Positions 37,929 through 41,809 are shown, counted from the first letter of the stretch. The stretch is DNA of 56,236 bases from Thelocarpon superellum (GCA_026025795.1 JAPEUG010000073.1:1-56236), one strand, 5' to 3'. Notes: generated by a model not told the origin, from the letters alone. A program made the numbers and translations.

Positions 37929-38782
37929 ATGGCTCCGACCATCATCCTGATCCGCCACGCGCAAGCCGAGCACAACGTTGATCATAAGTACCCCTCCGAG
38001 CGCGACTGGAGACCAAGGACACGAGGACGCGTCAACTAACATGATGACCATCTTACAAGACTACAGCATCCCTGACGCGCCCTTGACCGAGCTTGGCCTC
38101 GCCCAGTGCAAACAGCTACAGGAGGACCTCCGCCGTGATCTCCCGCTTGCCGACGAGATCGACCTGATCGTCGTCAGCCCTCTCCGCCGCACGCTGCAAA
38201 CCGCCCAAGGAGGACTCGGGTGGCTGATCGAGCGTGGCGTGCCGGTGGAACTGCATGCGGAGTGGCAAGGTAGGTCGAGTCTCAGCCTCATTCCTCCCCG
38301 ACCAAGACCTAAGACTCTCACACCCAGAGAACTCGGACAAACCATGCGACACGGGGACTGCAGTCGAGACCATCCAACCGCATTTCCCCACGCTCTCCTT
38401 CGCGACCGTGGACCCGGCCTTCCCCGCCAAGACCGGGCACTACACCTTCTCGCAGACGGCCATCCTGCACCGTGGCGAGACGTGCCGCGCCTGGCTCCGC
38501 GCGCGCCCGGAGAAGGTCATCGCCGTGGTCTCGCACTCGGGCTTCCTCCGCGTCGGCGTCTCCAACGCCGCCTATGCCAATGCCGACTATCGCGTCTTCG
38601 ACTTTGCCAAGGAAGACGACGTGGAGGCAGCGGCGGAAGCAAATCCCGGCAACCGCCTCATCGAATGGGAGCTCACGCGTGAGAAGGGCGGCGGACGTGG
38701 TCAGAGCCCCAAGGGTTGGTTCGGCCCTGAGAGCCAGCCGTGGCCCACGACGGACACTACGACCCACTTGGCCCCTGCGTCT

Positions 38783-38819
<37 letters not shown>

Positions 38820-38914
38820 CTGTTCCCACGGTGGAGCTCAACGGCGTAGCCCACGTGCCGGACGACGTCCCTAAGCAGACGGCGGAGGAGGTCACGCCCG
38901 AGGTTCCAAACTGA
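37929..38914 (+). CDS. Histidine phosphatase / phosphoglycerate-mutase-like protein (3 exons)
   Basis: ILIRHAQAEHN (RHG-type motif), DAPLTELG, VSPLRRTLQT, WQE..KPCDTG, VVSHSGFL. Intron 2 is 38270-38327; intron 1 is best modelled as AT-AC 37984-38056. Confidence 0.9.
38785..38820 (+). repeat. (GCCTGT)5-6 coding microsatellite encoding a PVPVPV tract
   Basis: Visible tandem repeat in the C-terminal tail of the phosphatase. Confidence 0.9.
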
Positions 38915-39442: not shown

Positions 39443-41809
39443 CTAGTATGCCACCTGAGAAGTCAAACCATCCAGCTCACGAGTATAGTTGCGATGGCAA
39501 GAGATCTGGTAGGCGTAGGCGTGCAAGAAGTCGCGGGCGCCTGCGGCGAGATTCATTATCTCTCGGAAGCTTTCAGCCTTGCGCAAGCCGCCGCCCGCGG
39601 CCGTGATGACACCGTATGATTCCACGACGCCGTGATCGTGGCCAGTCTCGGCTGCGGAGGTAGGCGTGGCGAATTTCATGCCTGGCACGTCGCATGCGTC
39701 CCGCACCAATGCCACCGCTTCCCCCGTCGCCCCGATCGCCTTGCAGTGCCCGAAGGCTTCGCGGATATAGTGTACCACACGCCCGCTTTTGCGCAGCGTG
39801 TCGATGTGGCTGCCGCCCGGGACAAAGACTGAGTCGAAGAGCGTGGACCGCATGCCTTCGAAGTGGTGGTCTGGCGTCAGGCCCTTAGCGCTGCTGCGGT
39901 CCTCGTCGAGGGCGAATATGGGCCGGCGGTGCGGCGCCAGTACGAATAGGAAGGCTCCCGCGGCTTGGAGTGCTGCCTTGACTCCGTTGAATGCGACCGG
40001 GTCGTATCCATCGGCAACGAGGATAGCGACACGGCGGCTGGCGATTGTGGGGGTTTCGGCGGGGAGCTCAGTTTGCGAGAGATGCTTCGACTTCTTGCCG
40101 TGATTGGCTCGTCCGCTCTTCTGCGGAATTGGGCTACCTGCTTTTTCCGCCACGGCTTGCGCCAGCTCGATATCAATGTCACACAGCCGTTCCACAATCC
40201 GGTTGTACACCATCGGTTCGTCGCAGTGATCAAGCTCGAAGCCCAGAGCAGCAATGATGTGGGCTTTCTCATAAGGAGACATCGAGTTGTAGAAGAGCTG
40301 CGCTTGGCTGATGTGCTCCTGGAACTTCTTGCTTTTCAAGCGCGTCTTCACTCCCACCACCTTCTCCGGGTAGTCGACAAAGCCCCCCTCGGACGACGAC
40401 GCGGGTGGCACGGCCTCGAGACGGTTCGGCCAGTAGTTGATCTTGCCCTTCATGATCTTGTGTCTACCTTGGCCGTCTCGCTGGTGGTTCATCACCGGGC
40501 ATACCGGGCGATTGATCGGAAGCTCCTGCCAGTTGATGCCCAATCGCGATAGCTGCGTGTCAAAGTAGGAGAAGTTTCGGCCTTGAAGCAGCGGGTCGTC
40601 CGAGAAGTCGATGCCCGGGACGATGTGGCTGGTGCAGAATGCCACCTGCTCCGTCTGGGTGAAGTACTCGTCCGGCATCCGGTTCAATTCGAGCTCGCCA
40701 ATATATCGGATCGGCACCAGCTCCTCGGGCCAGATCTTGGTAGCGTCCAAGATATCAAACTCGAAGTCGTCCTGTTGCGACTCGGGAATGGTTTGGATGC
40801 CAAACTTCCACGTCGGAAAGATCCCGTTGCTGATGGCTTCCTCCAGATCTTTTCGGTGGAAGTCCGGATCCTGGCCGCAGATCTTGAGAGCCTCATCCCA
40901 CACGAATGAGTGTACCCCCAGCGTGGGCGTGAAGTGGAACTTGACGAAATGGCTCACGCCAGCCTTGTTGACCAGTCGGTACGTGTTGACGCCGAATCCT
41001 TGCATCATACGGTAGGAACGAGGGATGCCCCGGTCTGACATGGCCCACATGAACATGTGGCTCGCCTCGGAATGGAGATATTGAAAGTCCCAGAAGTTGT
41101 TGTGGGCCGATTGGCCCGTTGGGACCTCGTTGTTGGGCTCTGGCTTGGCCGAATGGACTTGGGTTGTTGTCAGTGGGGTACTCTTAATCCAAGTTGAAGA
41201 GACGCTTACTCAAATCGGGGAATTTCATTGCATCTTGAATGAAGAAGACGGGGATATCGTTCCCAACGATATCTAAGTGAACGTATCAGCAATGGCCTGG
41301 ATCGGTGCGGACCAGCACTCACCCCAATTGCCCTCTGGCGTGTAAAACTTGACAGCAAAGCCGCGGACATCGCGAACGGTGTCCGCAGTCCCTCGACTGC
41401 CAAGCACGGTGGAGAAGCGGAGGAAGAGCGGGGTAGTCCGAAAGGTATCGGTCAAAACTTTGGCACACGTCACGTCTTCGGCACTTTCGAAGAGGCGAAA
41501 GGTGCCGAAGGCTCCCGCGCCACGGGCGTGAACGACGCGTTCGGGGATCCGTTCGTGGTCGAATCGATGGATCTTCTCACGACCATGGACATCGGAGAGC
41601 AGGGCGGGTCCTTGACGATCGGGGGTCGACACTGACAGCCAGTCGTCCGTATTCGCTTGTTTCACCCCGGCATCGGTCGTGATGCGAGCATGCGGGTCGT
41701 CCGAGTTGTGCGTTTCGGGCTGGAGGTTCTTGATCTTGCCATTGGGCTCGGTGGCATCGGCGAGCGTGGCTTGAGCCCTGGCGAAGGTGGTCGAGATCAC
41801 AGACGACAT
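39443..41809 (-). CDS. catA: Large-subunit catalase, CatA/CAT-1 type, with C-terminal DJ-1/GATase-like domain (3 exons)
   Basis: [70 protein letters not shown]; no signal peptide. Confidence 0.95.

Follow-up and report, generated by a model that had tools for sequence, protein, structure and literature searches.

A putative U2-type AT-AC intron in a histidine phosphatase gene of Thelocarpon superellum and its relatives among the filamentous ascomycetes

The stretch of DNA analyzed here (the window) is sequence JAPEUG010000073.1 of assembly GCA_026025795.1, positions 1-56236, with a length of 56,236 nucleotides (nt). It comes from a metagenome-assembled genome named Thelocarpon superellum, and window coordinates are used throughout. 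On its plus strand, positions 37929-38914 hold a gene of three exons and two introns that belongs to branch 1 of the histidine phosphatase superfamily (His_Phos_1, PF00300), the N-terminal RH(G/A) motif included. The first of the two introns, predicted at 37984-38056, begins with AT and ends with AC. We consider it, at a probability of about 90%, to be a genuine U2-type (type II) AT-AC intron and a substrate of the major spliceosome. The features of the gene are as follows:

37929..37983, plus strand: exon 1 (55 nt), encoding MAPTIILIRHAQAEHNVD plus the first base of a split codon; ATG at 37929
37984..38056, plus strand: predicted AT-AC intron (73 nt, phase 1); ends and codon position identical in 33 other loci
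37984..37989, plus strand: 5' splice site ATAAGT, the GTAAGT U2-type consensus with A at +1
38036..38040, plus strand: branch-site candidate CTAAC (CTRAY class); branch A 38039, with a spacing of 17 nt to the 3' end
38044..38048, plus strand: second branch-site candidate aTGAC; its A (38047) has a spacing of 9 nt to the 3' end, as in homologs (9-12 nt)
38053..38056, plus strand: 3' splice site TTAC (YAC), 17 nt after the branch A at 38039
38057..38269, plus strand: exon 2 (213 nt), encoding (Q)DYSIPDAPLTELG...HAEWQ plus one base; Pfam His_Phos_1 match
38270..38327, plus strand: intron 2 (58 nt, phase 1), canonical GTAGGT...CAG; its removal restores the conserved EWQENSDKPCDTG
38328..38914, plus strand: exon 3, with the TGA stop at 38912-38914

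Excision of 37984-38056 together with intron 2 leaves a complete open coding sequence of 855 nt (284 amino acids, aa), with the junction peptide ...HNVDQDYSIPDAPLTELG... at the first splice. An initial annotation, made from the sequence alone, had described exon 1 as ending in GAT C (at 37983), followed by ATAAGT, a CTAAC at 38036-38040 and a TTAC ending at 38056 with 17-nt spacing, and all of these coordinates match. It had also predicted that removing the 73 nt would give a family-like HNVD-Q sequence; the 284-aa frame is open, and it obtains the highest profile score of the placements listed below. Exon 2 alone matches His_Phos_1 with E=6e-08 (33 bits, cut-off 21.7), and exon 1 gives a weak match to profile positions 1-24; for comparison, the homolog P0289 covers profile positions 1-156 (E=3e-17). 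The start of exon 1 resembles the start of homologs and carries the RH(A/G) motif of the histidine phosphatase fold in the form RHA, whose histidine we take to be the catalytic residue. With exon 3 as the query, 299 homologous proteins were retrieved.

Competing placements of the first intron were scored against a profile built solely from 16 intron-free genomic homologs. The scores, all for the plus strand, are:

37984-38056, AT-AC model: 105.8 bits
37984-38059, AT-AG model: 96.6 bits
37988-38066, GT-AG model: 92.6 bits
37977-38025, GT-AG model: 91.9 bits
38044, deposited start: 57.9 bits, covering profile positions 19-62

Further frame-keeping options in the window are several GC-AG pairs with poor donors. 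The second GT-AG pair (37977-38025, GTTGAT..CGAG) keeps the frame, and with it 31 nt of the intron would stay coding. The first (37988-38066, GTACCC..ACAG) had been presented in the initial annotation as the only canonical alternative. That pair is real and in frame, with the product HNVDHNIPDA, and the word "only" was a slight overstatement given the in-frame pair at 37977-38025. The flaws ascribed to it were borne out: its donor lacks G at +5, the AG at 38058-38059 is skipped, and DYS is lost.

The deposited gene model, P0004 (270 aa, beginning MTILQDYS), starts at ATG 38044, which lies within the aTGAC branch-site candidate. This start is inside the 73-nt intron, so the RHA motif and the catalytic exon are missing from the model. 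If the intron were retained, the exon-1 frame would end at TAA 38037-38039, while the open frame from ATG 38041 or 38044 is continuous with exon 2. On these grounds the gene could be read as unspliced, that is, as a pseudogene or as a template for translation from ATG 38044 into a protein that lacks the catalytic histidine. We judge this very unlikely: exon 1 is undamaged and specifies the start that the family conserves, RHA included; both splice sites and the branch site are intact and match those of 33 other loci; and the deposited start scores lowest and covers only part of the profile. Predictors restricted to GT/GC-AG introns would yield exactly such a truncated model, and the retained-intron frame from ATG 38041/38044 accounts for its origin.

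To place the AT-AC reading in a comparative setting, metagenome contigs were scanned using the homolog alignment. The scan gave 80 loci, and these and the window (81 in total) were classified by the state of the intron site:

AT..AC intron at the exact codon position: 34 of 81 loci (the window and 33 others)
GT-AG intron at the site or at most 3 nt away: 9 of 81 loci (L009, L024, L027, L029, L056, L058, L066, L075, L080)
Intron-free at the site: 26 of 81 loci (among them L062, with an apparent 2-nt frameshift)
Ambiguous: 3 of 81 loci (L007, L042, L077)
Region off the contig: 9 of 81 loci (L002, L003, L004, L010, L015, L020, L025, L047, L069)

The recurrence of ATAAGT and a terminal AC at one codon position in 33 other loci makes this a pattern far beyond chance. 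For loci with a single intron, we enumerated all stop-free placements that keep the H and DP anchors 27 nt apart, give or take one codon; the end pairs GT-AG, GC-AG, AT-AC, AT-AG, and GT-AC were retained, and no splice class was presupposed. ATAAGT..AC at offset 10 was the sole solution that recurred at 27 nt, and it did so in all 12 distinct single-intron sequences (window included), none of which had a GT-AG or GC-AG solution at that length. Incidental AT-AC or GT-AC solutions with poor sites were found at 27 nt in L057, L073, L071, and L070, and an incidental poor GC-AG solution at 30 nt in L023. Another 17 distinct sequences (19 loci) have two introns in this region, and the solution that recurs among them consists of a canonical intron, then a micro-exon of 9 nt, then the AT-AC intron; L009 is of this two-intron type and has GT-AG in place of AT-AC.

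The ends were also read at a fixed position, which the protein reading frame alone sets at 17 nt upstream of the DP codon. The dinucleotide before this position is AC in 34 of 34 loci with an AT donor and AG in the GT-donor loci L024, L027, and L075. In addition, L066 has GTGAGT..TAG at exactly the homologous site. The initial annotation had proposed an alignment of orthologous genes as a check for conservation or covariation, and both are present: an AT..AC intron occurs at 34 of the 81 loci, and the ends switch jointly to GT-AG.

Several observations from the survey concern individual loci. The 9-nt micro-exon (e.g., ATGTTGCTC, two and two-thirds codons) lies between the RHA and DP codons of Leotiomycetes-like loci (L001, L005, L006, L008, L011, L012/13, L014, L016/17, L019, L021, L050/53/54, L063/67, and L064), and at some of these a single long GT-AG intron that bypasses the micro-exon would also preserve the frame. 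The GT-AG loci L024 and L027 read LIPHAQ rather than LIRHAQ about 70 nt upstream of 1732, a change from Arg to Pro in the RH(G/A) motif. Exon 1 has apparent one- or two-base frameshifts in L052 near 1640 and L062 near 1425 (CTTCCACAAT; CTACAACGTT), which may be assembly errors or decaying copies; with its frameshift repaired, L062 reads as an intron-free copy equal in sequence to the AT-AC spliced product. An assembly error at the ends of the AT-AC intron itself was considered and rejected, as identical ends recur in independent assemblies.

The anatomy of the intron was examined in 35 homologous introns, 30 of them distinct, with the ambiguous L077 included. Among the distinct introns the donor is ATAAGT in 27, ATATGT in two, and ATACGT in one, and the terminal trinucleotide is CAC in 23, TAC in six, and AAC in one. 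Lengths range from 46 to 73 nt. All but one of the 30 carry a CTRAY branch motif, and in 28 of these 29 its branch A is 9-12 nt away from the intron end; for Trichoderma introns in general, a peak in branch offset at 11-14 nt has been reported (PMC4324775). Thus characterized, the intron appears by its sequence to be an ordinary short fungal U2-type intron save for its two terminal bases.

AT-AC ends and a branch site near the 3' end would also be seen in a U12-type AT-AC intron, the substrate of the minor spliceosome. No ATATCC donor (0/30) and no TCCTTRAY branch box (0/30) was found among the distinct homologous introns, and the prevailing donor is a U2-type hexamer. The surveys in PMC10639083 and PMC2846911 report neither minor introns nor minor-spliceosome RNAs in Ascomycota, Pezizomycotina included, in agreement with what the initial annotation had stated for ascomycetes. 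A U12-type intron thus has a negligible chance of being the right description. The absence of U12-type motifs, in a phylum that lacks the minor spliceosome, instead leads to assignment as a U2-type AT-AC intron. The sequence features of that class are present here: AT..AC ends, a /ATAAGT 5' site, and neither a U12 donor nor a U12 branch box. A strong /ATAAGT consensus is documented for U2-type AT-AC introns (PMC5029451 citing Sheth 2006; PMC1557818).

How the major spliceosome might handle such ends is suggested by work in yeast, where an engineered AT-AC intron splices and where mutations of the first and last intron bases suppress each other (Parker and Siliciano, 1993, cited in PMC5029451 and PMC4299874). 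The statement in the initial annotation that a yeast donor with A at +1 is rescued by C as the last base agrees with these accounts. In the mechanism we propose, U1 and later U6 would recognize the 5' site through a perfect match at +2 to +6 (UAAGU), which would offset the A at +1, and a CTRAY motif shortly upstream of the 3' end would serve as the branch site. At exon ligation, the first and last bases would form an A-C non-Watson-Crick pair in place of the usual G-G, and because of this pairing the AG 3 nt downstream would be passed over. Splicing would thereby link the catalytic RHA exon to the remainder of the enzyme and give the 284-aa protein.

Uninterrupted open reading frames (ORFs) from relatives of the window gene bear on which 3' site is used. 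Two of them, P0295 (268 aa, on a 1955-nt contig and running in from a 5' leader) and P0298 (242 aa), fall in the Cenococcum geophilum cluster; they have the junction peptides NVE-R-DYSIP and NIE-K-NYSIP, respectively, and the model P0289 of strain 1.58 reads likewise. At the Cenococcum-like genomic loci L043, L049, and L051, which have 94-96% identity in exon 3, the junction is GAG A|ATAAGT..CAC|AA GAT TAC, and a gap of ~377 nt (381 nt in L049/L051) lies between exons 2 and 3. For these loci, AT-AC splicing alone yields a nine-residue junction in which D or N comes after K or R; AT-AG splicing would give NVENYSIP and GT-AG splicing NVENNIP, the latter as in the NCBI model P0162. A third ORF comes from an Aureobasidium-like fungus: P0241, with 250 aa on a contig of 1632 nt. 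Its junction peptide, NVNQEYDIP, is exactly what AT-AC splicing of L022 and L028 would yield, and the ORF shares 91% identity with L022 over exons separated in the genome by 545 nt. We infer that P0295, P0298, and P0241 are transcripts, since their ORFs are uninterrupted while the related genomic loci hold introns. In both lineages the site used is AC, although AAG follows it.

These junctions also help to weigh the two frame-keeping alternatives at the site. One pairs the AT donor (37984) with the AG just past the end of TTAC (38058-38059) and gives HNVD-H-YSIPDA. It preserves the frame, an AG lies at most 3 nt past the AC in 23 of the 30 distinct introns, and L042 has an ATAAGT donor with AG at the fixed position. 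However, this AT-AG model scores below the AT-AC model and removes the conserved D from the DY pair. All 30 distinct introns have the AC, whereas 7 of 30 have no AG within 3 nt, and in L011, L014, L050, L053, and L064 the AG is 2 nt downstream, which would put AT-AG splicing out of frame. The AC product is seen in the Cenococcum and Aureobasidium-like ORFs despite the AAG next to it, and in yeast the combination of A at +1 with G as the last base blocks exon ligation (Parker and Siliciano, 1993, cited in PMC4299874). Use of AT-AG in the window is accordingly most improbable.

The other alternative is the canonical pair at 37988-38066, which preserves the frame and has an equivalent in two homolog models, P0162 (Cenococcum, NCBI, NVENNIP) and P0132 (Leptodontidium, NATNNIP). 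Apart from its poor donor, bypassed AG, and lower profile score, the equivalent pair is present in just 6 of 29 distinct AT-AC loci, and so it cannot account for the conserved ATAAGT..AC; 16 of the 29 have no frame-keeping GT/GC-AG alternative nearby at all. The uninterrupted Cenococcum ORFs P0295 and P0298, as well as the JGI-derived model P0289, conflict with P0162. We therefore give GT-AG splicing at this site a very low probability and retain the AT-AC intron as the preferred reading.

The AT-AC state is old. When sorted at ≥90% identity over the protein segment from exon 3, the 34 AT-AC loci make 24 groups; pairwise identity over this segment has a median of 50% and a minimum of 34%. In a quick maximum-likelihood tree (138 columns), they sit with named proteins from Leotiomycetes, Lecanoromycetes, Dothideomycetes (Cenococcum, Glonium), and Xylariales. 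Thelocarpon impressellum, Hyaloscypha, Botrytis, and Cenococcum 1.58 were covered at the level of protein models. This grouping with four classes indicates that the AT-AC intron predates their split or is at least very old. On the best tree, the GT-AG state requires six changes. Both terminal bases of the intron change jointly in five of five phylogenetically independent pairs on well-supported branches (six on the best tree). The AT-AC intron has probably persisted because conversion to GT-AG takes two matched changes.

Several points weigh against this reading of the intron or limit its reach. The window intron is the longest of the set at 73 nt, and its CTAAC has a spacing of 17 nt to the end where 9-12 nt is seen elsewhere, though aTGAC is found at 9 nt. 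L042 has ATAAGT but AAG at the fixed position, with AC 3 nt upstream, and L007 and L077 are ambiguous at the site. A sign test on the independent pairs gives p=0.0625, short of 0.05 because the pairs are few, and many forks of the 138-column tree stay open. GT-AG introns were picked as frame-keeping standard pairs, which favors apparent covariation; the fixed-position comparison of AC with AG is free of this selection bias. The putative transcript status of P0295, P0298, and P0241 derives from ORF continuity. Excision at these exact bases in Thelocarpon superellum is predicted by homology, and the absence of U11, U12, U4atac, and U6atac from this genome is taken from literature at the level of the phylum. 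Taken together with the conservation, the joint change of the ends, the lack of U12 motifs, and the ORFs of relatives, the proposal in the initial annotation of a natural A..C intron spliced by the major spliceosome is nevertheless strongly supported. As a separate matter, the L042 junction, upstream of 1802, contains either an extra codon (AT-AC) or a natural AT-AG intron.

The intron has consequences for deposited annotation beyond P0004. Homolog models show at least four types of junction that resemble work-arounds by predictors for an AT-AC intron: a start inside the intron, read-through, a shifted GT-AG intron (..NNIP), and skipping of the micro-exon. Read-through leaves the signature [NDH]-K-[SFY], which is ATAAGT read as codons. 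The models affected are P0004, P0007, P0033, P0085, P0123, P0132, P0135, P0137, P0159, P0162, P0193, P0283, and P0300. Gene predictors limited to GT/GC-AG introns fail on this gene, and allowing ATAAGT..YAC in fungal annotation would mend such errors.

Two further observations concern the homolog models. P0033 (HNYELPDP) appears to skip the 9-nt micro-exon. Six Sclerotiniaceae/Acephala proteins (P0062, P0076, P0084, P0129, P0130, and P0127) have a 12-residue junction, NVS[HN]K[AS]xNYELH, that is three residues over the norm and contains H/N-K where ATAAG would be read; imprecise loss of an intron may have left this junction behind, or it may be another mis-splice.

Elsewhere in the window gene, a GCCTGT hexamer repeat at ~38784-38821 (plus strand, exon 3) encodes (PV)n in the C-terminal tail, and in the alignment this tail is longer than those of homologs. 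The neighbor on the opposite strand (39443-41209, minus) encodes a catalase of the large-subunit type, matched by the Pfam domains Catalase, Catalase-rel, and Catalase_C/DJ-1-like; its ORF is one long exon.

AUAAGU in Neurospora telomerase RNA directs cleavage that stops after the first splicing step. The initial annotation had suggested that the A..C intron might act as a splice-or-cleave control point by virtue of the AG 3 nt downstream. The comparative data do not support that suggestion: this AG arises from the next codons (xAA/xGA + GAY), 7 of 30 distinct introns lack it within 3 nt of the AC, and the terminal C is always present. A broader version holds that selection keeps the AT-AC intron as a kinetic gate, or for first-step-only cleavage, and thereby controls the level of active phosphatase. 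Retention of the AT-AC state across deep divergence is consistent with it, as are the strict conservation of the donor hexamer (27/30) and the first-step-only cleavage that AUAAGU drives in Aspergillus TER1 (PMC4299874). First-step-only cleavage goes with A at +1 and no compensating last base, whereas the compensating terminal C, which permits the second step, is present in all 34 AT-AC loci. The downstream AG is not conserved, and replacement by GT-AG at least five times, together with loss in many lineages, indicates that lineages can do without the AT-AC state. Its persistence is accounted for more simply by the two matched mutations that a change would take, and we think the regulatory account improbable. 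In its fullest form, it would have the AT-AC state selectively kept since before several Pezizomycotina classes split, as a rate-limiting or condition-dependent step, perhaps with some first-step-only cleavage, that gates active phosphatase, with the fixed ATAAGT and the ~10-nt spacing from branch to AC as its working parts; we offer this as speculation, with a small chance of being correct.

Under the preferred reading, as an AT-AC intron of the major spliceosome, the phosphatase intron is a new, deeply conserved example of a known rare class. In the five model species compiled by Sheth et al. (2006, PMC1557818), 24 U2-type AT-AC introns were listed among ~610,000 introns. Like these, and like the human SCN4A/SCN5A introns, the phosphatase intron has AT-AC ends, /ATAAGT, and no U12 motifs; as in the catalogued introns, its ends are conserved between distant species (PMC1557818). 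Unlike the SCN4A/SCN5A type, it belongs to a filamentous ascomycete, in a phylum without any minor spliceosome, and it has the dimensions of a fungal intron (46-73 nt, with CTRAY ~10 nt from the end); its U2 dependence is predicted. It shares its terminal dinucleotides with U12-type AT-AC introns, from which it differs in that the ATATCCTT donor and the TCCTTAAC branch box are missing and in that the phylum lacks the machinery.

Among fungi, AT-AC junctions have been reported in passing from Fusarium graminearum RNA sequencing (PMC3577648) and make up 69 of 14305 junctions in RNA sequencing of Trichoderma longibrachiatum (PMC4324775), and fungal xylanase genes have been hypothesized to contain AT-AC II introns (PMC1557818). 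The Fusarium and Trichoderma junctions are, like the phosphatase intron, from Pezizomycotina and necessarily substrates of the major spliceosome. In contrast to those junction lists, one orthologous intron is traced here over 24 groups, with its GT-AG replacements and its losses. In the literature searched, we found no description of the phosphatase AT-AC intron, nor any account of an AT-AC intron followed over several fungal classes (the gene lists and supplements of PMC3577648 and PMC4324775 were outside this scope and may include it), and no paper that pairs an AT-AC intron with histidine phosphatase or phosphoglycerate mutase.

Two other systems share parts of the same chemistry. As in the engineered yeast actin intron with A first and C last, A at +1 appears to be tolerated at ligation when the last base is C; unlike that double mutant, the phosphatase intron is natural, and its natural switches from AT-AC to GT-AG follow the same pairing rule. 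Aspergillus TER1 has an identical 5' hexamer, AUAAGU, and no compensating last base, and it stops after step 1 with formation of the RNA 3' end (PMC4299874). The phosphatase intron, in contrast, keeps the compensating C, and its product, as judged from relatives, would be a spliced mRNA.

The phosphatase gene thus provides a rare natural AT-AC intron of the major spliceosome that can be traced through many fungal lineages. It is a natural demonstration of the rule derived from yeast mutagenesis, whereby a first A goes with a last C and replacements switch both ends to G...G. Together, its homologs form a ready natural series for the study of 3'-site selection by the major spliceosome in a phylum without a minor one.
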